The notes beneath the pieces are model-generated. The model did no database searches. It was given only the letters and a program-made list of their open reading frames with translations, and was not told the DNA's origin. A stretch of DNA of 64,000 nucleotides from an uncultured Candidatus Saccharibacteria bacterium. Lineage in GTDB: Bacteria; Patescibacteriota; Minisyncoccia; Minisyncoccales; Staskawiczbacteraceae. Each line of letters starts with the position of its first letter. Within the stretch, counting starts at the first letter, position 1. Positions 9,953 to 34,314 of the stretch are shown piece by piece. Where the stretch lies: assembly GCA_964397155.1 (NCBI GenBank), contig CAYNHB010000001.1, positions 2,093 to 66,092 of the forward strand, written 5' to 3'. A program made the translations under genes and the position numbers.

Positions 9953-9953
9953 C

Positions 9954-14886: not shown

Positions 14887-14910
14887 TATTAAATAATAAA
14901 AAATAAATTT

Positions 14911-15474
14911 ATGGAAATTTCTAAAAAAGGAAAAATTGTAAGCATTATTGTTGTTTTGTTTATTGTTTTAGCCGGAATCAGTTTAAGGCTTATTCCTCAT
15001 GCTCCTAATTTTACGCCAATAGCTGCTATTGCTTTGTTTAGCGGAGTTTATTTTTCTAAAAGAATAGCCCTTATTCTGCCGATTGGAGCTATGGCAATTT
15101 CAGATATATTCATTGGTTTTTATGAGCCAAAGCTAATGATTGCTGTCTACGCAAGTTTTCTTTTATTTACTATTATAGGTTTTTGGCTGAAAAAACATAA
15201 GAGCTGGTATTTGATAGGTGGGAGCGCAATTCTATCTGCTGTTTTATTTTTTCTTATTACTAATTTTGCTGTTTTTGCTTTTTCTCCATGGTATGCCAAA
15301 ACTTTTTCAGGTTTGATTCAATGCTATGTGCTGGCCCTGCCATTTTTCAAAAATACCCTGCTGGGAAATCTGTTCTACACAGGTGTATTTTTTGGAGCAT
15401 ATGAATTATCAAGGGTTTGGATAAAAAGCAAGTTTGGGGTGAAATCAAAAACCCTTGCTTCAGCTAAAATCTAA
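14911..15474 (+). CDS. Small polytopic membrane protein (5-6 TM), candidate ECF-type S-component or B12 permease
   Basis: 187 aa with 5-6 hydrophobic helices, last gene of the riboswitch-led operon. Function is inferred from size, topology and context only. Confidence 0.4.
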   Translation: MEISKKGKIVSIIVVLFIVLAGISLRLIPHAPNFTPIAAIALFSGVYFSKRIALILPIGAMAISDIFIGFYEPKLMIAVYASFLLFTIIGFWLKKHKSWYLIGGSAILSAVLFFLITNFAVFAFSPWYAKTFSGLIQCYVLALPFFKNTLLGNLFYTGVFFGAYELSRVWIKSKFGVKSKTLASAKI

Positions 15475-19574: not shown

Positions 19575-20573
19575 ATGATTTTTGATAACAAAAAAATATT
19601 AATAACCGGCGGGGCTGGATCAGTGGGTCAGGCCCTAATAAAAGAGATATTAAAATACAGCGGAAATACCATCCGTGTTTTTGACATATCTGAAAATGAG
19701 ATATCCAAATTAAGGCATAATTTTATGGGAGAAAAAAGACTGCGTTATTTGATTGGCGATGTAAGGGACTTAAAGAGATTAGAATTAGCGATGGAAGGGA
19801 TTGATATTGTTATCCATTTAGCGGCGATGAAGCACGTATATACCTGCGAGTATAATCCTTTTGAAGCAATTAAAACAAATATAGACGGCCTGCAAAATGT
19901 TATAGATTGCGCCAGAAATGAGAATGTTGAGAAGGTGATTTTTACCAGCACTGATAAAGCAGCGCGCCCCTTAAGTGTGATGGGCATGACTAAGCTTATA
20001 GGCGAAAAACTTATTTCTTCTGCAAACTATTATAAGGGAAGTAGTACGACATCATTTGCTTCAGTGCGTTTTGGAAATGTGGCGGGGTCAAACGGATCTG
20101 TTGTGCCGATTTTTAAAAAACAAATTCTCAATAGCGAACCCTTGAGGATTACCGATATGAAAATGACCCGTTTTGTTATTACTATGCAAGAAGCGGTAAG
20201 TTTAATTTGCCAAGCCGTTCAGCTTATGCAGGGAGGAGAGGTATTTGTGTGGAAAATGAGAACATTAAAAATAACTGATTTGGCAGATTCAATGATAGGC
20301 AGATACGCAGGGGGCAGGCAGGTAGAAGTGGTTATCACCGGAAAAGTAGAGGGCGAAAAAATACATGAAGACATAATGTCATCAGAAGAGCTTTCCCGAT
20401 CGGTAGAGTTGGATAATCTTTATATTATTTTTCCAATGATTGATTACTCAAATATTAAAAGCAGATACCAGAACGCAAAGCCGGTTGAAAATCCGATTAT
20501 CGCTTCAAATATGGGGACTCACATGTCTTCAGACGAGATAAATAAATTATTAGGAGAAGAAAAAGATTTATGA
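19575..20573 (+). CDS. pseB: UDP-N-acetylglucosamine 4,6-dehydratase (inverting), PseB/FlaA1/CapD-type
   Basis: ILITGGAGSVG, YLIGDVRD, HLAAMKHV, STDKAARPLSVMGMTKLIGEKL and GNVAGSNGSVVPIFKKQI closely follow PseB throughout its length. Confidence 0.85.
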   Translation: MIFDNKKILITGGAGSVGQALIKEILKYSGNTIRVFDISENEISKLRHNFMGEKRLRYLIGDVRDLKRLELAMEGIDIVIHLAAMKHVYTCEYNPFEAIKTNIDGLQNVIDCARNENVEKVIFTSTDKAARPLSVMGMTKLIGEKLISSANYYKGSSTTSFASVRFGNVAGSNGSVVPIFKKQILNSEPLRITDMKMTRFVITMQEAVSLICQAVQLMQGGEVFVWKMRTLKITDLADSMIGRYAGGRQVEVVITGKVEGEKIHEDIMSSEELSRSVELDNLYIIFPMIDYSNIKSRYQNAKPVENPIIASNMGTHMSSDEINKLLGEEKDL

Positions 20574-21991
20574 TAAAAGTTTTATTAATTGATCCGCCAT
20601 TCCCGGAAAGGCCCTGGGATATAAATTGGCTGACGCAGTTTCCGCCCAAGGGCTTGATGTACATTGCCGCCTACCTGCGCCAGGCCGGAGTTGATGTGGA
20701 TGTTTTAGATATAAAGCAACTGCAGTTTGAAAGGCCCTCGCTTCTTTCGCGTTCAATAAGCGAGATACAGCAATTTGTAAAATATTATGTAAAGGAGCAT
20801 AATCCGGAAATTATTGGAATAACATCAACAACAATATCATATATTCCGGCGACAAAAATAGCCAAAGCAGTAAAGGAAGCGGCTCCAAACGCAAAAGTAG
20901 TTATTGGGGGGGTGCACGTTACATTTACAGCTCACGAAACTTTAACGGAGTGCCCATGGATAGATGTTGTTGTAAGGGGAGAGGGAGAGCGCCCGATACT
21001 TGAACTTGCGCAAGGCAAGACGCTTGCGCAAGTTCAAGGCATTAGTTTTAGAGAAAATGGAGAGATAATCGATAACCCAATGGGCCCATTATTAAATCCT
21101 GAGGAAATTCCTGTGCCAGCATATGATATGCTTGATATGAAAAAATACGCTTATGTTGTTTTAATGTGCACTCGGGGCTGTCCTCATAATTGCACCTTTT
21201 GTGAATTGCCTCAGGTGCATGGGAAAGGGATCCGCTGCCGTTCTTCTGAGAGAGTTTCTGAAGAGTTAGAGCTTGCTCTTTCTTTAAATCCAAATCTTGA
21301 AATTAGGTATGAAGATGAATTTATGGGCTTGTTTCCAGAACGCACAAAACAGATTTTAGATTTAGTGAAGAACAAAAGAGTTGGCCAGTTCCGGGCTGCT
21401 ACCAGACCTGATGGGCTTACAGATGAAATACTCGTTAAATTAAAGGAAGCGGGTTGCACCAATCTTTACATTGGCATGGAATCGGGCTCAGATGAGGTTT
21501 TAAAATTTAATAAGCGAGCTGTTACAGTGTCAAAAATTTTAGAGATTGCTGAAATGTTTAAGAAAAACGAAATGCTTTTTCACTCCGGGTTTATTTTAGG
21601 GCTTCCGGGAGAGAATAAACAAACACTTGAACAAACATTAGATATTGCCCTAAAGTGTTGCGATGCCACATTTGAAACAGTAAAGAAAAATTTTAAAGAG
21701 TTTCTTAGAATAATGCCGTTCAAATTAATTGTGGAAAATTCAAGAGCGGAGTTTAACTTATTGGCTCCAAATCCAGGCACAGAAATATTCCAGAACCCAG
21801 GAAAATTCAGGTATAAAATATTTCATAAGAATTGGGAGCTTTATGACTGCAATACTTCGGTTGGGGAACCCTATGATGTGAGTGCTTTGGAAATTGAAGA
21901 ATTTAAGAAAAAAGCTTTTAAGGCTGTCCAAGATAAAATGAAAGCTTACGATTTGCCAGTAAATTGGTGGGATTATGGATATAAAGGATAA
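20570..21991 (+). CDS. B12-binding (class B) radical SAM enzyme
   Basis: N-terminal B12-binding-like domain followed by the Cx3Cx2C motif RGCPHNCTFC. Confidence 0.8.
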   Translation: MIKVLLIDPPFPERPWDINWLTQFPPKGLMYIAAYLRQAGVDVDVLDIKQLQFERPSLLSRSISEIQQFVKYYVKEHNPEIIGITSTTISYIPATKIAKAVKEAAPNAKVVIGGVHVTFTAHETLTECPWIDVVVRGEGERPILELAQGKTLAQVQGISFRENGEIIDNPMGPLLNPEEIPVPAYDMLDMKKYAYVVLMCTRGCPHNCTFCELPQVHGKGIRCRSSERVSEELELALSLNPNLEIRYEDEFMGLFPERTKQILDLVKNKRVGQFRAATRPDGLTDEILVKLKEAGCTNLYIGMESGSDEVLKFNKRAVTVSKILEIAEMFKKNEMLFHSGFILGLPGENKQTLEQTLDIALKCCDATFETVKKNFKEFLRIMPFKLIVENSRAEFNLLAPNPGTEIFQNPGKFRYKIFHKNWELYDCNTSVGEPYDVSALEIEEFKKKAFKAVQDKMKAYDLPVNWWDYGYKG

Positions 21992-22919
21992 AAAAATTTT
22001 AATAACCGGCGGGGCCGGGTTTATGGGTCGGTGGACTGCAAAAAATTTGGTTGAAAAAGGCCATAAAGTTTGGATTTTAGATAATCTTTCAAATGGTTTT
22101 GAAAAAAATATTGAAGAATTTAGAAGCAAACTGCAGGGCTTTGTAATAGGAGACGTAAAAGATAAGGAAGTTCTTTTAAAATTATTTGAAAATAATTTCG
22201 ATATATGTGTTCATTTTGCCGCAGCAATAGATGTGCAAGAAAGCATTGATGACCCTGAAAAAAATTTCAACGATAATTGCCTTGGCACTTTTAACATTTT
22301 AGAACAATGCAGAAAGCACAACACAAAACTAGTTTTTGCCAGCTCTGCCTTAGTTTATAAAACATCGGAGCCTGGCTGTTTGATAAAAGAGCAAGACCCT
22401 GTTTTTTCCTCTTGCCCGTATGTTGCAAACAAGCTTTACGGAGAAAATCTTGCCATAGCTTATTTAAAAACTTACAATTTGCCTGTTGTTATTTTAAGGC
22501 CTTTCAGCATTTATGGGCCTTTTCAGAGAAGCGATTCTGAAGGAGGAGTGATGAGTATATTTATTAATAAAAAGCTTAAAGGTGATCCGCTTTTGGTTTT
22601 TGGAACAGGAGAACAGGAAAGAGATTTCTTTTATATTGAAGATTGCGCTGAATTTATTGCCAGAGCTTGTTTTGAAGACAAAGCCATAGGAGAAATTTTT
22701 AACGCCGGTTATGGGAAGGGAATAAAGATAAAGGATTTAGCTAAAAAAATAGCCGGCAACGAAGCAGAAATAAAATTTATTGAGCACCACCATCCTCATG
22801 CTGAAATAATGAATATGGCAGCTGACTGGCAAAAAGCAAAAACAATTTTGAATTGGGAACCGACAATAACTTTAGAACAAGGAATAATAAAAACAACTCA
22901 ATGGCTAAAAAACCAATAA
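21975..22919 (+). CDS. NAD-dependent sugar epimerase/dehydratase (extended SDR)
   Basis: ILITGGAGFMGRW Rossmann motif and a YxxxK region (YVANKLYGE). Confidence 0.75.
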   Translation: MDIKDKKILITGGAGFMGRWTAKNLVEKGHKVWILDNLSNGFEKNIEEFRSKLQGFVIGDVKDKEVLLKLFENNFDICVHFAAAIDVQESIDDPEKNFNDNCLGTFNILEQCRKHNTKLVFASSALVYKTSEPGCLIKEQDPVFSSCPYVANKLYGENLAIAYLKTYNLPVVILRPFSIYGPFQRSDSEGGVMSIFINKKLKGDPLLVFGTGEQERDFFYIEDCAEFIARACFEDKAIGEIFNAGYGKGIKIKDLAKKIAGNEAEIKFIEHHHPHAEIMNMAADWQKAKTILNWEPTITLEQGIIKTTQWLKNQ

Positions 22920-24022
22920 TTCCATACGGGCATCAATGGATAGATGAAGCCGACGTTAAAGAAGTTGTTAAAGCTTTGAGCTCTGATTGGCTTACTCAGG
23001 GCCCGAAAGTTGAAGAATTTGAAAAAGCACTTGCAAAATATTGCGGGGCAAAGTATGCCGTGGCAGTTTCTTCGGGCACCACAGCCTTATACGCAGCTTA
23101 TAATGTAGCTGGAATAAAGCTGAGAGATGAAATAATAACAACGCCTTTGACTTTTGCAGCTACTTCTAATATGGCGGCAATCTTGGGAGCAAAGCCGGTT
23201 TTTGTTGATATTGAGAGCGAGACTTTGAATATTGACCCGGAAAAAATAGACCAGAAAATTACAAGCAAAACAAAAGCCATAGTAACAGTAGATTTTGCCG
23301 GGCATCCTGCAGATTACGATAAAATTTTAAAAGTTGCCAAAAAGCATAATTTGCTGGTTATAGAAGATGCCTGCCACGCTTTGGGAGCTGTATATAAGAA
23401 CAAAAGAGTCGGAAGCTTAACTGATATGGCGATTTTAAGTTTCCACCCTGTAAAAAATATTACTACTGGAGAAGGCGGAGCAATTTTAACCAATAATAAA
23501 AATTTTTATGAAAAGCTTAAAATTTTTAGGCATCACGGAACAGTTAAAAAATCAGAAAAAGGTAAATGGTATTATAAAATTGAAAACCCGGGCTTTAACT
23601 GCAGAATTACTGATTTTCAATGCGCTTTGGGCACGAGTCAGCTAAAAAAAATAGGTAAGTTTTTAAAAAGAAGAAAAAAAATTGTTTCAGAATATAATAA
23701 GGCATTTAAAAATATTAAAAAAATTATACTGCCTGTTGAAAAAAATTATGCGAAGTCAGCCTGGCACATATATCCTGTTCAAATAAACGGATTGAACAGA
23801 AGAAAGGTTTTTGAGACATTGCAAAAAAAAGGAATTGGCTGCCAGGTCCATTATATGCCTCTGCACTTGCATCCGTTTTACAAAAAAAAGTTTGGGTATA
23901 AAAAAGGAGATTTTCCAAGAGCTGAGAAGTATTATGAGAGAGCAATCACCTTGCCCTTATATCCTAAAATGACCAACAAAGACGTCCAATATGTAATTAA
24001 GTCAGTTAAAAAAATAATATGA
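22901..24022 (+). CDS. DegT/DnrJ/EryC1/StrS-family PLP-dependent sugar aminotransferase (PseC/ArnB-like)
   Basis: The family N-terminus (IPYGHQWIDEADVKEVVKALSSDWLTQGPKVEEFE), SSGTTAL, and the FHPVKNITTGEGG lysine motif. Start taken at MAKKPIIPYG, overlapping the upstream gene. Confidence 0.85.
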   Translation: MAKKPIIPYGHQWIDEADVKEVVKALSSDWLTQGPKVEEFEKALAKYCGAKYAVAVSSGTTALYAAYNVAGIKLRDEIITTPLTFAATSNMAAILGAKPVFVDIESETLNIDPEKIDQKITSKTKAIVTVDFAGHPADYDKILKVAKKHNLLVIEDACHALGAVYKNKRVGSLTDMAILSFHPVKNITTGEGGAILTNNKNFYEKLKIFRHHGTVKKSEKGKWYYKIENPGFNCRITDFQCALGTSQLKKIGKFLKRRKKIVSEYNKAFKNIKKIILPVEKNYAKSAWHIYPVQINGLNRRKVFETLQKKGIGCQVHYMPLHLHPFYKKKFGYKKGDFPRAEKYYERAITLPLYPKMTNKDVQYVIKSVKKII

Positions 24023-24759
24023 GAACTGAAAAAGAACAAAATCACTCTAAAGAATTAAACCAACACTTAAATAGCCTGATAGCTCAAGAGAATAAACCTG
24101 TAATAGATATTATTAATGATTTTCCCAAATATGCTTCACGACAGACCCTTTCTCGCTTTTTGGCGCAGCATGAGTTATTTAAGATGATTTTAGATGTTAA
24201 GGGCTCTATTGTGGAATGCGGGGTTTTCAGGGGGGCAGGACTAATGACTTGGGCAAAATTATCTGCAATATATGAACCAGTAAATTATCACCGTGAAATC
24301 ATTGGGTTTGATACTTTTGCTGGTTTTCCTGATGTTGATGCTAAAGATGAAGCAGAAAATAAAAATGTTGACGCAAAAAAGGGTGGTATATCTGCAGATT
24401 CATATGATGAATTAAAAAAAGCAATAGATTTGTATGATTCAAACCGGTTTCTTTCCCACATAGAGAAAGTTAAACTAATCAAGGGAGACTTTTCAAAAAC
24501 TGGTCCGGAATTTATTGAGAAAAATCAACACCTTATAATATCTTTATTGTATTTAGACTTTGATATTTATAAACCTACGAAAGAAGCTTTAAAATTATTT
24601 TTACCAAGAATGCCGCGTGGGTCGGTTTTAGTTCTTGACCAAATAAATAATCCCAGATGGCCTGGGGAAACAGCTGCTTTGCTAGAAGAATTGGATCTGA
24701 ATAAGTATGAAATTAAAAATTTTTACTATGAACCAGATATATCTTATGTTGTTATATAA
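24019..24759 (+). CDS. TylF/MycF-family (macrocin-type) sugar O-methyltransferase
   Basis: IVECGVFRGAGLMTWA and the downstream DFD/LDQ segments fit the TylF (Methyltransf_24-like) family. Confidence 0.6.
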   Translation: MRTEKEQNHSKELNQHLNSLIAQENKPVIDIINDFPKYASRQTLSRFLAQHELFKMILDVKGSIVECGVFRGAGLMTWAKLSAIYEPVNYHREIIGFDTFAGFPDVDAKDEAENKNVDAKKGGISADSYDELKKAIDLYDSNRFLSHIEKVKLIKGDFSKTGPEFIEKNQHLIISLLYLDFDIYKPTKEALKLFLPRMPRGSVLVLDQINNPRWPGETAALLEELDLNKYEIKNFYYEPDISYVVI

Positions 24760-24767
24760 AAAATTTT

Positions 24768-25136
24768 ATGTTTAAAGTAGGAATTGATTTGATAGAAGTC
24801 AAAAGGTTTAAAAACATATCCCAAAAAAAGAAATTTTTGGAAAATGTTTTTACAGAAAAAGAATTAAAGCATTGCAAAAAAAAACCGGCAGAATCTTTGG
24901 CTGGCCGGTTCGCTGCCAAAGAAGCGACAAGAAAAACAATTGAAGATAAAATTGCTTTTAATGAAATAGAAATAACAAACGATAAAAATGGCGCGCCAGA
25001 AGTTAAGTTTTTGAACAAAAGAATAGAAAAAAAATATAAATCAATAATTAGCATTTCGCACACTCGATCGATGGCCCAGGCAGTGTGCATTACTTTCAAA
25101 AATGAGCGTCAAAAAATGCATAGTATTAGACCTTGA
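24768..25136 (+). CDS. acpS: Holo-[acyl-carrier-protein] synthase (4'-phosphopantetheinyl transferase)
   Basis: GIDLIEVKRF N-terminus and LAGRFAAKEATRK, with the small AcpS size. Confidence 0.75.
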   Translation: MFKVGIDLIEVKRFKNISQKKKFLENVFTEKELKHCKKKPAESLAGRFAAKEATRKTIEDKIAFNEIEITNDKNGAPEVKFLNKRIEKKYKSIISISHTRSMAQAVCITFKNERQKMHSIRP

Positions 25137-26148
25137 TAACACCCTTTGGGGCGGTATTGTGGGAGAGGACGGCTTTGAGGGAATTGAGTTATCTCTTGAT
25201 AAAGGGGCAGGTTTTATTGCTTTTCAGCAGGCTTTGTTGGATTTATATAACAAAGGAATAATTTTAGCTATTAATAGCCGAAATAATCATGAAGATGCCA
25301 TAAAAGTTATTAAAACTCACCCAAATATGATTTTGAGAGAAAACAATTTTGCCGCTGCGAGGATTAATTGGAATGATAAGGCAGACAATTTGAAAGAATT
25401 GGCAAAAGAAATAAATATCGGGCTTGATTCAATGGTATTTTTGGATGATGACCCGACAAATAGGGCGCTGGTCAAAGCAATTTTGCCAGAGGTTGAAACT
25501 CCAGAAATGCCCTCTGATCCTTCAGATTACGTAAAGTTTTTAATTCAGCTTCCATATTTTGATTTAGCTGCTCTGACAAATGAAGACAAAATGAGGGGGA
25601 ATTTTTATGTCACCGAAAGATTGCGCCGCGAGTCTGAAAAAATTTTTAATAACAGAGAGGATTTTTTAAAAAGCTTAAAAATGGAGATGCAGATATTCGA
25701 GGATGATCCGTCTCAGCTGGCGCGCTTAGCCCAGCTTACCAACAAAACCAATCAGTTCAATTTTAACAAGCGCGAGCTGTTAGAAAAAGATATTGCAGAT
25801 TTTATAAATAGCAAAGACTATAGGGTATTTTACGGCAGGTTAATAGATTGTTTTGGGGATTACGGAATAATTGGTTTTGCTGTTGTAAAAAAGGGTGAAG
25901 AATCCTGGCAAATTGAGCAATTTTTAATGAGTTGCAGGGCTATTGGGCGGGGGGCTGAGGAGGCATTTTTAGCAGCCATAGCAAAAACCGCAAAAAGCAG
26001 CCAAGCCAAAAGCTTATCAATAACATTTGTCCAAACCCTCAAAAACGAACCGGCAAAAGATTTTTTAGAAAAATACTTTAAAGATAATCCGGTGCTAATT
26101 GATAATATTGTTAATTCGCCGTCTTGGATAAAAAATGGAAAAATTTAA
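25102..26148 (+). CDS. FkbH-like HAD-superfamily (subfamily IIIC) enzyme
   Basis: CIVLDLDNTLWGGIVGEDG HAD motif I, a second motif VFLDDDP, and a ~350-aa length matching FkbH-like domains that load a glyceryl unit onto ACP. Confidence 0.6.
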   Translation: MSVKKCIVLDLDNTLWGGIVGEDGFEGIELSLDKGAGFIAFQQALLDLYNKGIILAINSRNNHEDAIKVIKTHPNMILRENNFAAARINWNDKADNLKELAKEINIGLDSMVFLDDDPTNRALVKAILPEVETPEMPSDPSDYVKFLIQLPYFDLAALTNEDKMRGNFYVTERLRRESEKIFNNREDFLKSLKMEMQIFEDDPSQLARLAQLTNKTNQFNFNKRELLEKDIADFINSKDYRVFYGRLIDCFGDYGIIGFAVVKKGEESWQIEQFLMSCRAIGRGAEEAFLAAIAKTAKSSQAKSLSITFVQTLKNEPAKDFLEKYFKDNPVLIDNIVNSPSWIKNGKI

Positions 26149-26365
26149 TAAAATAATTTTTGATATCTTTAAATTAACGCCGGCTAAGATTAAAGATTCC
26201 CTGACGTTAGAAGAAATTCCCGATTGGGATTCTATGAATTATTTACTGCTTATTTCTGAATTAGAAAAGCAATTTAAAGTATCTTTTAACATGGACCAGG
26301 TACTAAAGGCTAAATCTTTGGGCGATGTTAAAAATATGCTTCGTTCAAAAGGCATAGAATTATGA
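26135..26365 (+). CDS. Acyl carrier protein
   Basis: 76 aa with the EIPDWDSMNYLLLISELEKQF helix II and a DS(M) phosphopantetheine-attachment serine. Confidence 0.7.
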   Translation: MEKFNKIIFDIFKLTPAKIKDSLTLEEIPDWDSMNYLLLISELEKQFKVSFNMDQVLKAKSLGDVKNMLRSKGIEL

Positions 26366-27162
26366 AAAAAGAAAAAATTATATTTAAATATAAGGACAAG
26401 GGATTCGTTTTTTCGGACATAGTCAAAGCCATTAAAAAATCTGGGATTAAAAAAGGAGGCGTTTTAATGCTTCATGCTGATTTAGCCCGTTTTGGAAAAT
26501 TAGGAGAAATTTCTGATAAAAAAGAGTTTGCCAATGTTTTTATAGAAGCGTTTAGAGAGGCGTTGGGAGAAGAGGGAACATTGGTTGTGCCGACTTTCAC
26601 ATATTCTTTTTGCAATAATGAGGTCTATGACCCAGATAATACACCATCAAGAGTAGGATTATTTACTGAAGAATTACGCAAGAGAAAAGACGCTTTCAGA
26701 AGTATTCATCCTATATTTTCAGTTGCTGCTATCGGGAAAAAAGCTAAAGAACTAACCCAAAATATCAGCAAAAACAGTTTTGGTGAAGGTTCTGTGTATG
26801 ACAAGCTTTTAAAAATAAAAAATAGCAAATATGTGATATTTGGAGTTGATTATTTTAGTTGTACTCAGGTTCATTATATTGAAGAAAAACTGAGAGCGCC
26901 TTATAGATACGTAAAAAAATTTAAAGGGAAAATAAAAGAAAAAGGCAAAATATATAATGACGAATATGAATATTATGTCAGGCCCTTGGATGAAAGTGTA
27001 GTTCCTGATTTTGATAAAATTGAAAACCATCTTTTAAATGCTGGTTTTCTCAAAAAAACAGCCCTCGGTAATGATTTTATAAGCGTTACTAAGATTAGTG
27101 ATATCTGCAAGGAGGGAACAAAAATGTTTAAAAAAGACCCAAATTTTTTCTTAAAAATATGA
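26362..27162 (+). CDS. AAC(3)-family (Antibiotic_NAT fold) N-acyltransferase
   Basis: GGVLMLHADLARFG and TLVVPTFTYSF match aminoglycoside 3-N-acetyltransferase-family motifs. Here it is embedded in a sugar pathway next to an ACP. Confidence 0.65.
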   Translation: MKKEKIIFKYKDKGFVFSDIVKAIKKSGIKKGGVLMLHADLARFGKLGEISDKKEFANVFIEAFREALGEEGTLVVPTFTYSFCNNEVYDPDNTPSRVGLFTEELRKRKDAFRSIHPIFSVAAIGKKAKELTQNISKNSFGEGSVYDKLLKIKNSKYVIFGVDYFSCTQVHYIEEKLRAPYRYVKKFKGKIKEKGKIYNDEYEYYVRPLDESVVPDFDKIENHLLNAGFLKKTALGNDFISVTKISDICKEGTKMFKKDPNFFLKI

Positions 27163-28409
27163 TGCAATTAATTAAAGACCTCTGGTTTAAAAGAAGGGAT
27201 ATTATTTCTGACGGATTTGATGAATCATTGGAATATATTTCAAAAATAATCCCTCTTAAAATTCATGAAATCCCATCGGGAACAAAATGCTGGACTTGGA
27301 CGGTGCCTGAAAAATGGAGCGTGAAAGAGGCATATATAAATGATTTGGACGGCAACAGAATCCTTGATTTAAAAGATCACCCCTTGCATGTTGTTTCTTA
27401 TTCTTTGCCGATTGATAAAGTTGTAAGCAGAGAAGAGCTATTGGAGCACTTGCATACAAGCAAAGAAAGACCTGAAGCCATTCCCTTTGAATTTAAGTAT
27501 TATGAAAAAGATTGGGGTTTTTGTATTCAAGATAATAAATTAAAAGAATTTACAAAAGATAAATACAAAGTTTTTATTGATTCTAAATTTGAAAAAGGAG
27601 ACTTAAAAGTAGGTGAGCACACAATAAAAGGTAAAACTGATAAAACTATTGCTTTGGTTTCTCATCTTTGCCATCCCGCTCAAGTGAATGATGATTTGAC
27701 TGGCGTTGCAGTATCAGTTGATATTGCTAAAGCAATGGGCAAAAAAGACAACTACTATACATATAAATTTTTGTTTGTTCCAGAAACAATCGGTTCTCTT
27801 GCCTATCTAAGCCAAAATGAAGACGTAATTCCTAAAATAGAATACGGCATTTTTCTTGAAATGTTGGGCAATGACAATATTCATGCCTTGCAGTTATCGC
27901 GACAAGGGGATACGCGATTAGACAGAATTGCAAGATATCTAATGAAAAGAAATCTTAAAAATTTTAAAGAAGGACCTTTTAGAACAATTGTGGGAAATGA
28001 CGAAATGGTATTTAACGGACCCGGTGTTGATGTCCCAATGATTTCAATCAGCAGATATCCTTATCCTGAATATCATACATCAGACGATAATCTTGATATT
28101 GTGTCAGAACAAAGATTGGAAGAATCCAAAAATTTAATTTTGGAAATATTAAACATTATTGATAAAGATTTTACGCCGAAAAGGCAATTTAAAGGGCCGA
28201 TATTTTTGTCAGGATATGATTTATGGGTGGATTGGAGGGAAAATTTAGAATTAAACAGAAATTTTGAAAAAATTATGCTTAATCTTGAAGGCGATAAAAC
28301 CGTATTTGATATAGCAGATGAATTAAATATGAAATTTGAAGATGTCTTGGGCTTCGTGAATAAATTAGAAAAAGCCAAATTGGTCTTAAATATGAAAAAT
28401 AATGAATAA
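27159..28409 (+). CDS. DUF4910/aminopeptidase-like domain protein with C-terminal winged helix
   Basis: 416 aa. The C-terminal FDIADELNMKFEDVLGFVNKLEKAKLVL looks like a wHTH. The architecture resembles DUF2172-DUF4910-HTH proteins often found beside AAC(3)-like genes in glycan loci. The assignment is tentative. Confidence 0.35.
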   Translation: MMQLIKDLWFKRRDIISDGFDESLEYISKIIPLKIHEIPSGTKCWTWTVPEKWSVKEAYINDLDGNRILDLKDHPLHVVSYSLPIDKVVSREELLEHLHTSKERPEAIPFEFKYYEKDWGFCIQDNKLKEFTKDKYKVFIDSKFEKGDLKVGEHTIKGKTDKTIALVSHLCHPAQVNDDLTGVAVSVDIAKAMGKKDNYYTYKFLFVPETIGSLAYLSQNEDVIPKIEYGIFLEMLGNDNIHALQLSRQGDTRLDRIARYLMKRNLKNFKEGPFRTIVGNDEMVFNGPGVDVPMISISRYPYPEYHTSDDNLDIVSEQRLEESKNLILEILNIIDKDFTPKRQFKGPIFLSGYDLWVDWRENLELNRNFEKIMLNLEGDKTVFDIADELNMKFEDVLGFVNKLEKAKLVLNMKNNE

Positions 28410-29469
28410 GGAATATAATTTTAAAATTGGCAACAGGGAAATAGGGCCCGGAAATCCGGTTTTTATTATTGCTGAAATGTCTGCTAATCATAGTCAGGAT
28501 TTTGAAAGAGCCAAGAAAATAATTAAAGCTGCTTGCGAATGCGGAGCAGATGCAGTTAAGTTGCAAACCTATACTCCCGATACTTTGACTATTGATTGCA
28601 AGAAAGAAAGCTTTATCGTAAAAAACTCCAACCCTGATTGGAATGGGAAAACTTTATATGAACTCTATAAAACAGCTTATATGCCCTGGGAATGGTATCC
28701 GGAGCTTAAAAAAATAGCCCAAGAATGCGGTGTTATTCTTTTTTCTACTGCTTATGACGAAACATCAGTTGATTTTTTGGAAGAAATGCAGACGCCAGCT
28801 TATAAAATTGCCTCTTTTGAAATTAATGATGTGGAACTTTTAAAAAAAGTGGCCAAAACAGGAAAGCCAATAATTTTATCAAAAGGTATGGCCAGCATAG
28901 AAGAAGTAGAATTGGCAATTTCAACTTTAAGAGAAAATGGTGCTAAAGATATTATTCTTCTTCACTGCATTAGCTCGTATCCTGCTAAATTGGAGGACAT
29001 GAACTTAGCCACTATTTTAGATATAAAAGAAAAATTTAATGCAGTGCCAGGTTTATCTGACCACAGTTTAGGAATTTCTGTGGCAATAACTTCAATAGCT
29101 TTGGGAGCTTGTGTAATTGAAAAGCATTTTACCCTAAAACGAGCTGATGGCGGGCTTGACAGCTCTTTCTCTGTTGAGCCGGACGAATTAAAACAATTAG
29201 TAAAATGTGTAAGAGAGGCAGAAAAAGCTATCGGTAAAATTCAATACGGACCGACTGAAAGCGAAAAACCGAATATTATTGGCAAAAGATCGTTATTTGT
29301 GGTTGAAAATATAAAAACAGGGGAAGTGTTTACCCACAAGAATGTGCGTTCAATTCGCCCAGGATATGGGCTTGCGCCGAAATTTTTGCCTGAAGTTTTT
29401 GGAAAAAAATCGGTAAAAGACATAGAGCGCGGCACTCCCCTTGATCAAAGTTTAATTGAAAAAAAATAA
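28402..29469 (+). CDS. Nonulosonic acid synthase (NeuB/PseI/LegI family)
   Basis: FIIAEMSANHSQDFERAKKIIKAACECGADAVKLQTY N-terminal NeuB motif and a C-terminal SAF domain. Confidence 0.85.
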   Translation: MNKEYNFKIGNREIGPGNPVFIIAEMSANHSQDFERAKKIIKAACECGADAVKLQTYTPDTLTIDCKKESFIVKNSNPDWNGKTLYELYKTAYMPWEWYPELKKIAQECGVILFSTAYDETSVDFLEEMQTPAYKIASFEINDVELLKKVAKTGKPIILSKGMASIEEVELAISTLRENGAKDIILLHCISSYPAKLEDMNLATILDIKEKFNAVPGLSDHSLGISVAITSIALGACVIEKHFTLKRADGGLDSSFSVEPDELKQLVKCVREAEKAIGKIQYGPTESEKPNIIGKRSLFVVENIKTGEVFTHKNVRSIRPGYGLAPKFLPEVFGKKSVKDIERGTPLDQSLIEKK

Positions 29470-30196
29470 TATGAAATCAGCCATTATCCAAGCAAGGATG
29501 GGCTCTGATCGTTTGCCAGGGAAAGTTTTGAAGAAAATTAACGGAAGACCAATGCTGGAATACGTAATTAATAGGGTGAAGCTCTCTAAAAATTTAGATA
29601 AAGTCATTTTGGCTATTCCCAGCGCTTCTCAAGATGATATTTTGTTTAAATTAGCCAAAAAATTAAATACGATTTGTATAAGAGGGAGCGAGAAGAATGT
29701 TTTGAGCCGCTATCTTAAGGCGGCAAAAGGGACCAATACAGATGTGATTATTAGAATTACCGCCGATGCTCCTTTAATTGATCCTAGAATAATAGATGAG
29801 ATGCTAGACAGCTTTGAAAAAGAAAAATGTGATTATCTTATTAATGATGTAAGACACAAAGGCCATCCCCGAGGATTTGATGTAGATGTATTTTTTACAA
29901 AATGTTTAGAGAAAACATCAAAGCTGGCCAATACAGATTATCACAAAGAGCATATTACAACTTTTATGTTAGATCACCCTGAAATATTTAAAGTCAGATA
30001 TTACAAGGCGCCAAAAAATCTTTGCCGGCCGAATTACCGGCTTTGTGTGGATGAAAAACTTGATCTGATTTTGATAAAAAAAATATTTAAACATTTTAGG
30101 AAAAGAGAATATTTCAGCGCCCAAGAAATAATTGAATATATTGATAAAAATCCTAAATTGGCAGATATAAACAAAAATGTTAAGCAAAAAACATAA
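29456..30196 (+). CDS. Acylneuraminate cytidylyltransferase family (CMP-nonulosonate synthetase, PseF/NeuA-like)
   Basis: AIIQARMGSDRLPGKVL N-terminal CTP_transf_3 motif. The start may be MKSAII at 29471. Confidence 0.8.
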   Translation: MKKNNMKSAIIQARMGSDRLPGKVLKKINGRPMLEYVINRVKLSKNLDKVILAIPSASQDDILFKLAKKLNTICIRGSEKNVLSRYLKAAKGTNTDVIIRITADAPLIDPRIIDEMLDSFEKEKCDYLINDVRHKGHPRGFDVDVFFTKCLEKTSKLANTDYHKEHITTFMLDHPEIFKVRYYKAPKNLCRPNYRLCVDEKLDLILIKKIFKHFRKREYFSAQEIIEYIDKNPKLADINKNVKQKT

Positions 30197-30959
30197 AATA
30201 AAATACGGCTTGAAGCTATGGTCTACTGACCGGGAATTATTTCCGGAAGCAGTTCAATCATTTAAAAAAGGAACTATTGATTTTATAGAATTATATATTG
30301 TTCCCAATTCGTTTATGCCGGGAAAACTCGATTTTTTGAACGATCTGAAGAATATTCCCACAATTATTCATGCTCCTCACACCAAACACAATTTTGATGT
30401 TTTTTCACTCAACGATTCAAAGATTAAAATTTTTAAGGAGCAAGTTGCAAAAACCGCTGATTTTTTAAATAGTAAATTCATAATTGTCCATGCTGGAATT
30501 GGGGATTCCCAAGCAATTTTTAAAGAAAATATTGAAAAAATTAAAGATAAAAGAATTTTAATTGAAAATATGACAAAAATCGGCATAAATGATCAACCTT
30601 GCTTTGGACATTCTTATGAACAGTTGAAGTTTATTAAGGAGCGTGGATTTAATTTTTGTTTGGATTTCAGCCATGCGATAAAAAGCTCTATAAGCCAGAA
30701 AATAGGTTACAAAGAATTTGTTGAAAAATTAATCATTGAATTAACCCCGAATTATTTTCATATCTGCAACGGCAGATTTAATAATGACGAAGATGAACAC
30801 ATGGATTTGTTTGACGGTGACTTTGATATTAAATGGATTAAAGAAATATTGCTTAAATTAGCTGGGAAAAAAGATGTATATTTAGTATTTGAGACGCCCA
30901 AGAGCGGGAATAGAATTTCGAATGATATTAAAAATATAAACTACTTTTTAAGCATATGA
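30177..30959 (+). CDS. Xylose-isomerase-like TIM-barrel protein (sugar-phosphate isomerase/epimerase family)
   Basis: Alternating beta/alpha pattern with His/Asp/Glu metal-ligand candidates (IIHAPH, IIVHAGIG, ENMT, DFSH) typical of the AP_endonuc_2 fold. Confidence 0.5.
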   Translation: MLSKKHKIKYGLKLWSTDRELFPEAVQSFKKGTIDFIELYIVPNSFMPGKLDFLNDLKNIPTIIHAPHTKHNFDVFSLNDSKIKIFKEQVAKTADFLNSKFIIVHAGIGDSQAIFKENIEKIKDKRILIENMTKIGINDQPCFGHSYEQLKFIKERGFNFCLDFSHAIKSSISQKIGYKEFVEKLIIELTPNYFHICNGRFNNDEDEHMDLFDGDFDIKWIKEILLKLAGKKDVYLVFETPKSGNRISNDIKNINYFLSI

Positions 30960-32305
30960 ATAACAAAATAATGTTGATAAATCCGCCGATGACTTATTTT
31001 ACATCGGTAGAACCGATAAGATTGGCCCAGCCAATGGGGCTTTGTTATATTGCCGCAGTTTTAGAAAAAGAAGGGTATGATGTCAAAATATTTGACGCTC
31101 ATGCGGAAGGATACAACAACCGTACAAAAAGAGGAGACAGAACGCAGGTTGGTTTGGATGAAAAAGAGATTGCAAAAAAGATAGCAGAACTTAAGCCCGC
31201 TATCGCGGGGGTTTCGTCAATGTTTACAGACCAATACCATAATGCCAAAATGGTTTGCAAGATTATCAAAGAAGCAAATCCTGAAATTGTAACTTGCATG
31301 GGCGGAGTGCATCCAAGTATGGTAGCGGAAGAGGTTTTGAAAGATCTAAATGTTGATTATGTTATAAGGGGCGAGGCAGAGTACAGCTTTAGGGATCTTT
31401 GTGATTTGTTGGTAAAAAAGAAAGATATTGATCCTAAAAAAATTGACGGCTTGAATTTAAACTCTAAAACGAAATGGATTGAAAATCTTGACGAATTGCC
31501 TTTTCCTGCCCGCCACCTTCTTGACCTTCAAAGATATTTTGCTGCTGGAAGAGCCTATCGAGAACCGTCAAAGCGAGAGCCCGCTTTTCCCATAATTACC
31601 TCAAGATGCTGTCCTGCTTCTTGTAGTTTTTGCGCTACTCACATAATGCAAGGCCACTACCGACAGCGTTCAGTTGAAAATGTTATAACTGAGATTGAAT
31701 ATCTTATTAAAAACCATGGCATGCAAGAAATATATTTTTTGGATGATGCTTTGGCTTTCGGCAATTTTAAGGAGATATTAAAAAAGATGATTGAAAACCA
31801 GTATGATTTAGCGTGGCACGGCGCAAATGGGGTTGCTATTTACAGCTTAAATGATGAGTTGATAGAGTTATTTGCTAAATCCGGATGCTATAAAATTATA
31901 TTATCAATAGAGTCAGGCGTTCAAAAAACATTAGAATATATGAAAAAACCGGTAATATTAAACAAGGCAAATAAAATCATTAAGAAGATAAAAGATTGCG
32001 GCATGAAGGCAGAAAGCATGTTTATGATAGGCCTTCCTTGTGAGACAAAGGAGGACATATTAAATACTGTAAAATTTGCAGAGAGCTTAGATTTAGATTA
32101 TGTTAGTTTTCCTCTTGCCACGCCCTTCAAGGGAACAGCTTTTTATAGGGATTGTGTTGAAAAAGGATGCTTGGTGAAAGATTATAAGTATGAAAATCTT
32201 AAATTTGGAATTGGAAATATTCGAACCAAAGAATGGGGGACGGAATTTGTTGAGAAAGTAAGAAGAGAAGCATGGGAAAGAATTAACAAAATTAATAAAA
32301 AATAA
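30956..32305 (+). CDS. B12-binding (class B) radical SAM enzyme
   Basis: N-terminal B12-binding domain (VKIFDAH, GGVH) followed by the Cx3Cx2C motif SRCCPASCSFC. Confidence 0.8.
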   Translation: MNNKIMLINPPMTYFTSVEPIRLAQPMGLCYIAAVLEKEGYDVKIFDAHAEGYNNRTKRGDRTQVGLDEKEIAKKIAELKPAIAGVSSMFTDQYHNAKMVCKIIKEANPEIVTCMGGVHPSMVAEEVLKDLNVDYVIRGEAEYSFRDLCDLLVKKKDIDPKKIDGLNLNSKTKWIENLDELPFPARHLLDLQRYFAAGRAYREPSKREPAFPIITSRCCPASCSFCATHIMQGHYRQRSVENVITEIEYLIKNHGMQEIYFLDDALAFGNFKEILKKMIENQYDLAWHGANGVAIYSLNDELIELFAKSGCYKIILSIESGVQKTLEYMKKPVILNKANKIIKKIKDCGMKAESMFMIGLPCETKEDILNTVKFAESLDLDYVSFPLATPFKGTAFYRDCVEKGCLVKDYKYENLKFGIGNIRTKEWGTEFVEKVRREAWERINKINKK

Positions 32306-33007
32306 ATGAAAGCAACAATATTGCAGCCAACTTATTTGCCATGGATGGGATATTTTGAAATGATCGATTCTTCTGATGCTTATGTTGTTTTTGATCACGT
32401 TCAGTTTGAAAGAAAATCATGGCAGCAAAGGAATAAGATTAAAACAGCTAATGGAGTTATTTATTTAACAGTACCAGTTGAAAAATCATCGAGAGAAACA
32501 CCTATTTCTAAAATAAGAATATCTTATAATCAAGGAAATCCTTTAAAAAATCACTGGAAAACGATAGAGCTGGCTTATAAAAGAGCGCCATACTTTGGAA
32601 AGTATAAATCTTCTTTTGAAAAGATTTATTCTCAAAAGCATGTTTTATTAAAGGATTTGAATATCAAAATAATAAAATTAGCTTGTGATATTTTAGGTAT
32701 TAAGAAAAAGATAATCTTTTCTTCAGACCTTAACTTAAAAGATAAAAACATGGAAAAAACAGAAAAAGTCATAAACTTATGCAAGAACCAAGGAATAGCC
32801 CATTTATACGACGCTGAGGGAGCAGAAAAGATTTTGGATAAATCCTTGTTTCAAAAGGAGGGCATTTCGGTTGATTTCCAAGAATTTTTGCATCCAGAAT
32901 ATCCTCAGCTTTGGGGCGAATTCGTTCCATATATTTCAATAATCGACTTAATTTTTAATCAAGGAGATAAGTCCCTTTCTATTATTAGAAGCGGGGTTAA
33001 AGAATAA
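32306..33007 (+). CDS. WbqC-family protein
   Basis: MKATILQPTYLPWMGYFEMI N-terminus and ~230-aa size match the WbqC-like family. Paralog of 62669..63385. Confidence 0.6.
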   Translation: MKATILQPTYLPWMGYFEMIDSSDAYVVFDHVQFERKSWQQRNKIKTANGVIYLTVPVEKSSRETPISKIRISYNQGNPLKNHWKTIELAYKRAPYFGKYKSSFEKIYSQKHVLLKDLNIKIIKLACDILGIKKKIIFSSDLNLKDKNMEKTEKVINLCKNQGIAHLYDAEGAEKILDKSLFQKEGISVDFQEFLHPEYPQLWGEFVPYISIIDLIFNQGDKSLSIIRSGVKE

Positions 33008-33012
33008 AAACT

Positions 33013-34314
33013 ATGAAAAAACTTGCTTTATTCGGCGGAGAGCCAATATCAAAAAAACCTTTGTTGCAATATAATTCTATCGGTAAGGAAGAAGAACGGG
33101 CTGTTTTAAAAGCAACAAAAGAAAAGAAGCTTTCTGGATTTGTGGGAAGAGCTGGCGATCGTTTTTTAGGCGGTAAATATGTAAGAGAATTAGAATCAAG
33201 GTTTTGTAAGCATTTTAAGGTAAAATATGCAGTTAGCCTAAACTCTGCTTCTACCGCCCTACAGGCAGCTGTAGGAGCCTTAGGCATTGGTCCGGGAGAT
33301 GAAGTAATTACTTCGCCTTTTACAATGTCAGCTACTGCCTCTGCTATCTTGTTTAACAACGCCTTGCCTGTTTTTGCTGACATAGAAGAGGACAGCTTTT
33401 GCCTTGATTCTAAAAGTATTGAGAAAAATATCACAAAAAGAACTAAGGCAATTTTAGTTGTTAATATACTTGGCAGTTCAGCAAACTATGACCCCATTCT
33501 TAAAATAGCCAAAAAATATAACTTAAAAGTTATTGAAGATAATGCTCAATCACCAGGAGCCACTTATAAGAGTAAATTCACAGGTACGATAGGCGATATA
33601 GGCATTTTTAGTTTTAATGTTCACAAGGTTATTCAATGTGGAGAAGGAGGAATGTTAGTTACTAATAATAAAGATTATGCTTTTAGAGCCCAGCTTATTA
33701 GAAACCATGGAGAAGCAGTAATTAATGATTTGTATAAGAGTAAAAAATATTATCAGCCGGTTTTAGGCAATAATTTTCGTTTAACTGAAATTCAGGCAGC
33801 AATTGCTATAGAACAATTTAAAAAATTAGATAAGTTTAATAAACCAAGAATAATTCTTGCTAACTATTTGACTAAACAACTTTCACAATTTAAATGGCTG
33901 GTTCCCCCCTTGGTTTTTGAAGATAGTGTTCATGTTTATCATGTTTATGGTTTTAGGTTTTTGTCACAAAAAATCGGTATCAAAAGAGCAACTTTTATGA
34001 AAGCAATGAAAGCTGAGGGGTTCCAGCTTGTTGTAGGATGTGAAGACCCAATCCATTTATTAGAAGTTTTTCAAAAACAACAAATGTATCCTAATTCTAA
34101 ATTTCCTTTTGCTTCAAAGGAATATCCTCATAATATCAGCTACAAAAAAGGGATTTGCCCTGTTGCTGAAAGAATGTCGGAGGGAGAGCTTTTAGAAGCG
34201 CTAATTTGCCAGCCCGCTTATACAAAAAACGATGTTGATTTATTTATTAGAGCTGTTAAAAAAATTGAGGAGAATATCGAAGAGTTAAAAAAATATGAAA
34301 AGAAAAAGGTATAA
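33013..34314 (+). CDS. DegT/DnrJ/EryC1/StrS-family PLP-dependent sugar aminotransferase (second copy)
   Basis: Family N-terminus and a candidate PLP-lysine region FSFNVHKVIQCGEGG. 433 aa. Confidence 0.8.
   Translation: MKKLALFGGEPISKKPLLQYNSIGKEEERAVLKATKEKKLSGFVGRAGDRFLGGKYVRELESRFCKHFKVKYAVSLNSASTALQAAVGALGIGPGDEVITSPFTMSATASAILFNNALPVFADIEEDSFCLDSKSIEKNITKRTKAILVVNILGSSANYDPILKIAKKYNLKVIEDNAQSPGATYKSKFTGTIGDIGIFSFNVHKVIQCGEGGMLVTNNKDYAFRAQLIRNHGEAVINDLYKSKKYYQPVLGNNFRLTEIQAAIAIEQFKKLDKFNKPRIILANYLTKQLSQFKWLVPPLVFEDSVHVYHVYGFRFLSQKIGIKRATFMKAMKAEGFQLVVGCEDPIHLLEVFQKQQMYPNSKFPFASKEYPHNISYKKGICPVAERMSEGELLEALICQPAYTKNDVDLFIRAVKKIEENIEELKKYEKKKV

Follow-up and report, generated by a model that had tools for sequence, protein, structure and literature searches.

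What is an acyl carrier protein (ACP) doing in the middle of a sugar pathway? The question is raised by a stretch of 64,000 nucleotides from an uncultured Candidatus Saccharibacteria bacterium (contig CAYNHB010000001.1), the whole of which is called the window here. Five consecutive genes at 24768-28409, called the cassette below, lie in it between the genes of PseC and PseI, two enzymes of pseudaminic acid (Pse) synthesis. A preliminary description of the locus had read them as a device for ACP-dependent N-acylation of an amino sugar. On the evidence given here we lean towards the view that the five genes form a self-contained module, which places a glycerate-derived acyl group, instead of acetyl, on a nitrogen of pseudaminic acid. 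They are listed with their lengths in amino acids (aa) and their profile scores.

24768..25136, + strand: AcpS-type 4'-phosphopantetheinyl transferase, 122 aa (PF01648, 55.6 bits)
25102..26148, + strand: short-form FkbH-like HAD-IIIC enzyme, 348 aa (TIGR01686, 297.3 bits)
26135..26365, + strand: stand-alone ACP, 76 aa (PF00550, 24.5 bits)
26362..27162, + strand: AAC(3)-fold (Antibiotic_NAT) acyltransferase, 266 aa (PF02522, 144.7 bits)
27159..28409, + strand: DUF4910/DUF2172 M28-like single-zinc protein, 416 aa (PF16254, 274.5 bits; PF09940, 120.6 bits)

The open reading frames (ORFs) are exactly those first described. All five are intact and start with ATG, and each overlaps the next, by 35, 14, 4 and 4 nt in turn; the PseI gene overlaps the DUF4910 gene by 8 nt. 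From PseC through PseI the genes form one translationally coupled run. All five family assignments hold in profile searches, in which TIGR01681/TIGR01686, PP-binding and Antibiotic_NAT (PF02522) were matched by the respective ORFs, and solved homologs exist for three of the five proteins. The position between PseC (22901) and the NeuB-like synthase (28402) was confirmed as well, both neighbours passing their equivalog cutoffs, although the preliminary description had omitted an O-methyltransferase gene (24019-24759) that stands between PseC and AcpS. The same gene order occurs in five further genomes of the Candidate Phyla Radiation (CPR), at 68-75% identity (loci L004-L008; L numbers denote the related loci compared in this study). 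The arrangement is thus not a matter of chance. The nearest relatives of the cassette proteins are encoded in metagenome-assembled genomes of Patescibacteria/Parcubacteria, which places the source of the window among the CPR bacteria.

How would such a module work? In a first step AcpS would phosphopantetheinylate the 76-aa ACP to give holo-ACP, as its family assignment suggests. It scores 70.2 bits against TIGR00516 (cutoff 59.8) and 75.1 bits against TIGR00556 (cutoff 45.35), and shows the GIDLIEV and FAAKEA motifs. The ACP passes the PF00550 cutoff of 20.8 bits and has a D32-S33 motif; when it was aligned with 63 ACPs of the related loci, Ser33 was present in 100% and Asp32 in 97% of the 64 sequences. 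In a second step the HAD half of the FkbH-like enzyme would dephosphorylate 1,3-bisphosphoglycerate, and the glyceryl group would pass via Cys278 to holo-ACP. The score of this enzyme against TIGR01686 is about twice the cutoff (297.3 against 146.65 bits) and covers profile positions 2-317 of 323; the HAD-IIIC model TIGR01681 gives 75.3 bits, and the HAD half matches PDB entry 3slr at 5e-42. Its N-terminus fits the KCLVWDLDNTLW motif, which has been employed as a PCR primer for polyketide FkbH genes. The preliminary description had made its assignment depend on the catalytic Cys and Asp motifs. In the alignment the HAD motifs D10, D12, T14, S59, K93, D115 and D116 are all retained, at least 90% conserved in 36 FkbH sequences, and C278, which is part of an SCR motif in the C-terminal half, is invariant in 36/36. 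From work on OzmB we take C278 to be the catalytic cysteine.

An FkbH enzyme together with a stand-alone ACP turns 1,3-bisphosphoglycerate into glyceryl-ACP (PMC7489565). The window FkbH is predicted to carry out the same loading onto its own ACP. To our knowledge no other activity has been described for the FkbH family, of which the short form has more than 7600 homologs. Taken together, holo-ACP formation and glyceryl loading are highly probable predictions from family membership. Methoxymalonyl-ACP was considered as a product and rejected, as the window contains no FkbK/FkbI-type dehydrogenases. There is also no MaoC or ketoreductase gene in the window, so the acyl group should stay glycerate there; in relatives that have these enzymes, glyceryl is probably converted to pyruvoyl or lactyl.

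The trio of AcpS, FkbH and 76-aa ACP is found in another setting in Jorgensenbacteria and other CPR genomes, where it is followed by MaoC, a short-chain dehydrogenase/reductase (SDR) of the ketoreductase type and an MBOAT protein (L084, 7660-12979; L086, 7559-13077). A third locus (L085, 6194-11287) has a variant of the FkbH trio, with the MBOAT gene upstream on the opposite strand and no AcpS called nearby. No AAC(3)-like or DUF4910 gene follows the ACP in these three loci. Their FkbH is about 60% identical to that of the window, and comparing the window ACP with that from the CPR FkbH-MBOAT cassette gives 76.7 bits. The FkbH-MaoC-SDR-MBOAT layout is Dlt-like, and it would be expected to form lactyl-ACP from glyceryl-ACP and to O-acylate a surface polymer.

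Which parts of the cassette are constant, and which can be exchanged? A search with aligned AAC(3)-like homologs gave 290 stretches of genome, of which the 80 best loci were analysed. Two sets of proteins, those of the window and those of a Thalassotalea locus, served to search their six-frame ORFs. The 38 loci that have the full 20 kb are called full-length, and nearby means within 10 kb. DUF4910 stands alongside the AAC(3)-like gene in 62/80 loci, and in 34/38 of the full-length ones. ACP is present in about 61/80, usually immediately upstream and on the same strand; in 44/75 loci the AAC(3)-like gene has, on its own strand, an ACP ORF that ends at most 900 nt upstream of it. A loader was found in 60/80 loci; in 34 it is an FkbH, in the other 26 an AMP-binding enzyme, and the two occur together in none. 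Thus ACP, the AAC(3)-like protein and DUF4910 are the constant core, and the acyl-supply module is exchangeable. PseB, PseC or PseI is encoded nearby in 22/38 full-length loci, and flagellin or Maf genes in 7/38.

The AMP-binding loader comes as a fixed set of an HMGL-like protein, the AMP-binding enzyme, a 194-aa protein, a PF04199 cyclase and ACP, and this cassette type is equally widespread as the FkbH type. After the ACP there is sometimes a methyltransferase, and then the AAC(3)-like and DUF4910 genes (L003, 6005-12065). Further examples are L040, L046, L047, L050, L058, L066, L068, L069, L072, L073, L076 and L083. They often adjoin PseI, flagellin and Maf genes (Thalassotalea, Enterovibrio, Oceanospirillum, Legionellaceae, Micrarchaeota).

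Why does the window cassette carry an AcpS of its own? An AcpS gene lies inside the cassette in 16/19 loci of CPR and DPANN organisms, while it does so in 1/52 other loci (Fisher p = 5e-12), and this sole case sits 8.6 kb from the AAC(3)-like gene. CPR and DPANN organisms are generally without fatty-acid synthesis, and a private AcpS is therefore an expected adaptation. It is the main feature that separates the window cassette from the versions in Campylobacter and Clostridium.

The next question is which donor the AAC(3)-fold enzyme uses. As far as its sequence tells, the window protein shares the fold and the Pfam domain with the resistance enzymes but is not one of them; it scores 77.8 bits against the NCBIfam AAC_3 equivalog (cutoff 270) and 67.9 bits against AAC_3_IV (cutoff 420). 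Its solved relatives are 3e4f (AAC(3) of B. anthracis), FrbF (3sma) and YokD, and the family catalytic His/Glu pair, H171 and E174, is invariant among its homologs. We predict that it is an acyl-ACP:amino-sugar N-acyltransferase. In this third step glyceryl-S-ACP, not acetyl-CoA, would be the donor, and an intermediate of the Pse pathway would be N-acylated.

The gene context argues for ACP over acetyl-CoA. A MaoC domain, an acyl-thioester dehydratase, is fused N-terminal to the AAC(3)-like domain in L011, L017, L018, L022, L026, L036 and L042 (and in proteins P0022, P0024 and P0025); in L014, L019, L029, L031, L035 and L038 MaoC has an ORF of its own, placed after the ACP and before the AAC(3)-like gene, so that it is fused or inserted in about 13 loci in total. 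Moreover, the AAC(3)-like sequences sort by loader type: the nearest neighbour has the same loader type in a fraction of 0.90, and identity is 39.3% within types against 34.6% between them. The adjoining ACP gene, the MaoC fusions and the sorting by loader type together suggest that the enzyme reads acyl-ACP. Glyceryl transfer from ACP by this enzyme, as judged from context, is fairly probable. The N-acylation with a glycerate-derived acyl group put forward in the preliminary description thus stands as the best reading of the gene context, from which we infer it. The MaoC-AAC(3) fusion proteins are about 410 aa long (for example L011, 9542-10771), and another protein, P0015, combines AAC(3)-like and glyoxalase/VOC domains.

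Then what is left for DUF4910, the most conserved partner, to which the preliminary description had assigned no task? Its sequences are more conserved overall than the AAC(3)-like ones and do not sort by loader type (same-type nearest neighbour 0.58; identity 47.5% within and 47.0% between types), which suggests that DUF4910 acts on the constant sugar part. The window protein matches CA_C2195 (PDB 3k9t) at 1.6e-77 over residues 3-339, and Pfam M28 weakly (36.3 bits). With DUF2172 inserted in its DUF4910, it belongs to the family of CA_C2195 and Cj1295 (PIRSF015244, 'polysaccharide biosynthesis protein with aminopeptidase-like domain') and is a homolog of both, in sequence as well as in the position of its gene. 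Its zinc ligands H172, D178 and H306 align with H189, D195 and H324 of 3K9T, and both His positions are unchanged throughout 61 homologs. We rejected a true peptidase, because it lacks the catalytic Asp and Glu of M28 enzymes as well as their two-zinc site: the catalytic positions are A174 and P208 in the window, and S191 and P225 in CA_C2195.

A hint of function comes from Campylobacter jejuni. The DUF4910-family protein Cj1295 is required for di-O-methylglyceroyl Pse there, and removal of the N5 acetyl by Cj1295 was proposed (Hitchen et al. 2010, PMC3068675). The derivative had been described by Logan et al. 2009 as 7-acetamido-5-(2,3-di-O-methylglyceroyl)amino-Pse. The gene after Cj1295, Cj1296/7, is a phase-variable 'N-acetyltransferase' (PMC3068675). 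The FkbH-domain gene is cj1302, and a strain in which cj1302 is a pseudogene has no glyceroyl sugars (PMC7099621). In our survey the proteins whose genes come directly after pseB-pseC in C. jejuni L044 share 40% (DUF4910) and 38% (AAC(3)-like) identity with those of the window. The order in the Campylobacter loci L044, L074 and L080 is pseB, pseC, DUF4910, AAC(3)-like gene, with ACP and FkbH slightly further on (L041), and the window FkbH is 32% identical to the FkbH of L041.

In C. jejuni, then, glyceroyl sits on N5, the nitrogen that bears the original acetyl of GlcNAc, and a de-N-acetylation step is implied. Since N5 arrives acetylated from UDP-GlcNAc and DUF4910 has a single His/Asp/His zinc site, a de-N-acetylase is the best guess for this protein. 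As a fourth element of the mechanism, DUF4910 would be a single-zinc amidohydrolase that removes the pre-existing N-acetyl and frees the amine for glyceryl transfer. We hold this assignment tentatively, at slightly less than an even chance. The nitrogen acylated is N5 in C. jejuni; in the window, where no PseH was found, it may also, or instead, be the 4-amino group, which becomes N7.

Neither the sugar nor the gene neighbourhood is new. N-glyceroyl Pse, the kind of product that the preliminary description had predicted, is known from C. jejuni 11168 as Pse5(2,3-di-O-methylglyceroyl)7Ac, from Tannerella forsythia as Pse5Am7Gra, and from Vibrio vulnificus as 7-N-glyceroyl Pse. [quoted passage not shown] The mechanism is another matter: in the literature searched we found no enzymology of the cassette, no explicit ACP route to glyceroyl-Pse and no biochemical work on Cj1296-Cj1302, and a single descriptive mention of FkbH with pseudaminic acid. 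The T. forsythia papers say that the genetic and biochemical basis of the glyceroyl group 'remains a major challenge' (PMC5378307, PMC6388019), and cj1295 is still termed a 'putative transferase' in a 2026 paper.

What does the rest of the window offer to such a module? The genes closest to it in function are the following.

19575..20573, + strand: PseB-like UDP-GlcNAc 4,6-dehydratase (PF02719, 315.7 bits)
22901..24022, + strand: PseC aminotransferase, which makes the 4-amino sugar (TIGR03588, 486.6 bits, cutoff 423.5)
24019..24759, + strand: CalS11/TylF-like O-methyltransferase (PF05711, 51.9 bits)
28402..29469, + strand: PseI pseudaminic acid synthase (TIGR03586, 479.2 bits, cutoff 340.25)
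29456..30196, + strand: CMP-sugar cytidylyltransferase-family protein (PF02348, 113.1 bits)
33013-34314: second DegT aminotransferase

The PseB-like ORF scores 316.2 bits against TIGR03589, below the cutoff of 407.75, and this is its top-scoring model. The cytidylyltransferase (29456-30196) is at 35.8 bits far below the PseF equivalog cutoff of 205.7. The O-methyltransferase overlaps PseC by 4 nt, leaves an 8 nt gap to AcpS, and matches CalS11 in PDB, a TDP-rhamnose 3'-O-methyltransferase, at 4.4e-43; the equivalent position is occupied by a methyltransferase in L006 and L007. It is a candidate for O-methylation of the glyceroyl group or of a sugar hydroxyl, and may give a methylated product comparable to C. 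jejuni's di-O-methylglyceroyl Pse. The absence of a GNAT-type PseH, stated earlier, holds across the window: the scanned ORFs of at least 110 aa gave neither a GNAT nor a hexapeptide acetyltransferase domain, and two GNATs from the Thalassotalea Pse locus, used as queries, gave no match there. No Maf, flagellin, MBOAT or MaoC gene was found in the window either.

The entire 64 kb is one + strand glycan locus. It also encodes an O-antigen-ligase/TPR protein, glycosyltransferases, two flippases, a TagF-like enzyme and five B12-radical-SAM genes, and it has a second block with an aminotransferase, a cytidylyltransferase and an ATP-grasp protein. A Capsule_synth (KpsS/KpsC-like) protein at 45660-47087, in this locus without Maf or flagellin genes, is a candidate transferase of the nonulosonic acid onto polysaccharide, not flagellin. 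Given the CPR host, the destination is likely a non-flagellar surface glycan. A 617-aa fusion at 34295-36148 joins a GT-B domain, weakly like UDP-GlcNAc 2-epimerase, to a CMP-sugar cytidylyltransferase domain, and is also present in the CPR loci L005 and L007. PseG was sought in its GT-B half (34295-35350), and only a weak 2-epimerase match (4neq, 1.8e-5) was obtained. As recognisable PseG and PseF are absent, the fusion is a candidate NDP-sugar hydrolase or activating enzyme. Two WbqC-like proteins (PF08889) are encoded in the 32306-34314 region, directly upstream of the DegT aminotransferase, and at 62669-63385 near the window end. They were considered as PseH substitutes; neither an NCBIfam match nor a relative of solved structure was found for them.

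Several genes of the locus concern vitamin B12. Between PseB and PseC, at 20570-22919, there are a B12-binding radical SAM enzyme and a second SDR, in an order repeated in the CPR loci L005-L008, which suggests an extra modification of the carbon skeleton of the Pse precursor. Three tandem B12-radical-SAM genes (553, 647 and 655 aa) lie at 6357-11921 and two more within the Pse region, making the five of the locus; the best match of the ORF at 30956-32305 is a P-methyltransferase model, at 244.9 bits against a cutoff of 575. At 12114-15474 an alpha-alpha toroid (prenyltransferase/SQHop_cyclase-like) plus DUF4430 protein is accompanied by a second DUF4430 protein and a DUF6580 membrane protein, an architecture that we take to resemble transcobalamin-like B12-binding proteins. 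If so, a set of genes for cobalamin uptake would lie next to those of the B12-dependent enzymes.

A number of observations weigh against a glyceroylating Pse module, and they are of different kinds. Some concern the pathway. Recognisable PseG or PseH was not found in the window, and the WbqC-like proteins could supply the missing step or the N-modification. Others concern the enzymes. All characterised AAC(3)-fold enzymes that we know of, including FrbF, use acetyl-CoA, and the sequence does not prove an ACP donor. The third zinc ligand of DUF4910, at the D178 position, is Asp in 26/61 homologs and Asn in 35/61. The catalytic role suggested for C278 draws on what is reported for OzmB and on its invariance; in papers on bafilomycin, foxicin and tetromadurin we found no statement of an FkbH catalytic Cys or its motif, only the N-terminal motif and the pathway. 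More generally, every catalytic step past family membership is an inference.

The remaining points come from the distribution of the cassette. The preliminary description had asked whether it is independently conserved away from sugar genes, and the answer is partly yes. PseB, PseC and PseI are all absent nearby in 16/38 full-length loci. On an alphaproteobacterial chromosome (L043, 8060-12533) FkbH, ACP, AAC(3) and DUF4910 have no sugar-nucleotide genes within 10 kb, their neighbours being a response regulator, glutamate dehydrogenase, NAPRTase and NamZ. Thus the acceptor is not proven to be a Pse intermediate everywhere, even though the other 22/38 do have Pse genes. The AcpS-FkbH-ACP trio, too, is paired with MBOAT in other CPR genomes. 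Two CPR/DPANN cassettes with the layout AcpS-FkbH-ACP-AAC(3), L019 (7123-10777) and L020 (7556-10860, with PseI next), have no DUF4910 within 10 kb, so that DUF4910 is not obligatory for every version.

Are there other explanations? One is that the AAC(3)-fold enzyme just replaces PseH, as the preliminary description had it: glyceryl would go to the 4-amino group of UDP-4-amino-4,6-dideoxy-AltNAc to give 7-N-glyceroyl Pse, with no deacetylation, and DUF4910 would be unrelated or accessory. The window, with the cassette between PseC and PseI and no GNAT or hexapeptide acetyltransferase, fits this explanation, as do the 7-N-glyceroyl Pse of T. forsythia and V. vulnificus and the cassettes without DUF4910, such as the AcpS-FkbH-ACP-AAC3-PseI run of L020. 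However, it leaves the most conserved partner without a role. DUF4910 is present in 34/38 full-length loci, including L003, L032 and L058, which have PseH-like GNATs of their own. C. jejuni, the only organism with product data, has glyceroyl on N5, and its PseH is encoded elsewhere in the flagellar glycosylation locus. The lack of PseH in the window stands, but a simple replacement at the 4-amino group is unlikely.

Another explanation keeps acetyl-CoA as the donor. The AAC(3)-fold enzyme would be a non-GNAT analogue of PseH, and AcpS, FkbH and ACP would serve another acceptor, for example in glycan O-acylation. This agrees with the donor of the characterised AAC(3)-fold enzymes known to us, and with the trio that serves MBOAT in other CPR genomes. 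But the window lacks an MBOAT, or any other candidate for an acceptor enzyme, ACP adjoins the AAC(3)-like gene across phyla, and the MaoC-AAC(3) fusions and the co-variation of the AAC(3)-like protein with loader type are hard to combine with it. We consider it very improbable. It is also very improbable that the module acylates some other amino sugar of the locus, such as the product of the second DegT (33013-34314): further DegT, WbqC, ATP-grasp and cytidylyltransferase genes are indeed at hand in the window, and 16/38 related loci are without Pse genes nearby, but the cassette follows PseC and overlaps PseI in a coupled run, is embedded in the same way in L005-L008, and has its DUF4910 and AAC(3)-like counterparts right after pseB-pseC in Campylobacter, where the product is a Pse derivative. 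Least probable of all is that acyl transfer or transamidation is the task of DUF4910 itself, the AAC(3)-like protein having a supporting part (transacylation onto an amino sugar was one option in Das et al. 2014), since DUF4910 does not co-vary with the loader, its position relative to ACP is less constant, and it is the AAC(3)-like protein that keeps the catalytic His/Glu and bears the MaoC fusions.

If the glyceroylating module that we prefer is extended to the related loci, a wider scenario emerges, which we offer as a more speculative possibility than any single step above. ACP, the AAC(3)-fold enzyme and DUF4910 might be a portable 'N-acyl swap' unit with plug-in loaders, and the general machinery, unassigned until now, behind the non-acetyl N-acyl diversity in the nonulosonic acids of bacteria and archaea. 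The loaders would be FkbH alone, FkbH with MaoC (in L031 also with a ketoreductase), or the HMGL-like/AMP-binding/cyclase set; the acyl groups would include glyceroyl, probably lactyl or pyruvoyl, and others. If this is true, two activities would be new: that of an AAC(3)-fold enzyme which depends on acyl-ACP, and that of an M28-like protein which removes N-acetyl groups from sugars. The AAC(3) fold would gain an acyl-ACP donor, DUF4910 would gain a function, and the question of the T. forsythia papers, how N-glyceroyl is attached to Pse, would be answered. The sugar decorations of many genomes, including those of CPR bacteria and DPANN archaea, would become predictable from the loader type. 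This is of some consequence, as nonulosonic acids carry varied N-acyl groups that shape flagellar assembly, phage recognition and immune recognition. On the ordinary reading alone, the window cassette adds one copy to a kind that was reported in 2010-2014. Its value lies in the assignments for four proteins, in the modular picture across 80 loci and in the extension to CPR and DPANN: it offers a compact, intact, single-operon candidate machinery, and the comparative data give each protein a separate testable job.

How does the cassette compare with known systems? In polyketide pathways an FkbH-domain enzyme likewise works with a dedicated stand-alone ACP (FkbH/FkbJ of FK520, OzmB/OzmE, and Mad7/Mad8 of tetronate), and the N-terminal KCxVxDLDNTLW motif is common to these enzymes and the window FkbH. 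Unlike them, the window has no FkbK/FkbI-type dehydrogenases, FabH-like enzyme or polyketide synthase, and its predicted acceptor is a sugar amine. The AAC(3) enzymes and FrbF (3e4f, 3sma) have the Pfam domain and the His/Glu pair in common with the window protein; the resistance enzymes use acetyl-CoA, whereas its predicted donor is acyl-ACP. FrbF reportedly acts on a CMP-linked amine, so that the AAC(3) fold can handle nucleotide-linked substrates. In butirosin synthesis an acyl group built on a dedicated ACP is said to be moved to an amino-sugar amine by BtrI/BtrH (work of Llewellyn, Li and Spencer, 2007). BtrH belongs to another family than the AAC(3)-fold enzyme, and its acyl group is a gamma-glutamylated amino acid, which is deprotected later. 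The logic proposed for the window is like that of LpxC/LpxD in lipid A synthesis, where a zinc de-N-acetylase frees a UDP-GlcNAc-derived amine and an acyl-ACP-dependent N-acylation follows. The two systems use unrelated folds (an LpxC fold and a left-handed beta-helix there, M28-like and AAC(3) folds here), and they differ in the acyl group, a hydroxy fatty acid as opposed to the predicted glycerate, and in the sugar.

Closer relatives are found among flagellar glycosylation loci. The Shewanella sfmABCDE flagellin-modification cluster, which cites Cj1295, was set aside because it consists of different genes. For C. acetobutylicum, Das et al. 2014 solved the structure of CA_C2195 (PDB 3K9T) and argued for a non-peptidase role in sugar modification; their table of neighbours has an aminosugar N-acetyltransferase, acpA, an 'N-acetyltransferase + HAD phosphatase', a NeuB-type synthase and a cytidylyltransferase. 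CA_C2195-CA_C2199 thus resembles the window in its DUF4910+DUF2172 protein, 'aminosugar N-acetyltransferase', acpA and HAD/FkbH-type protein beside the synthase and the cytidylyltransferase, and CA_C2195 has the same zinc site, with the peptidase residues likewise missing. The Clostridium cassette differs in lying in a flagellar glycosylation island with Maf genes and in having no AcpS. L011, a related locus of Clostridium, encodes its AAC(3)-like domain and a MaoC dehydratase as one fused protein, while the window enzyme is unfused. Another close system is Cj1293-Cj1304 of C. jejuni NCTC 11168 (pseB, pseC, Cj1295, Cj1296/7, acpP2, cj1302), which shares DUF4910, AAC(3)-like protein, ACP and FkbH with the window, has the first two directly after pseB-pseC, and makes a glycerate-acylated Pse. 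The window differs from it in its own AcpS, in its contiguous and coupled genes, in the absence of phase-variable tracts, flagellin, Maf and PseH, and in its CPR host and cell-surface polysaccharide-type locus. It holds a compact, AcpS-equipped version of the cassette that is genetically linked to glyceroyl-Pse in C. jejuni and has been noticed in Clostridium.

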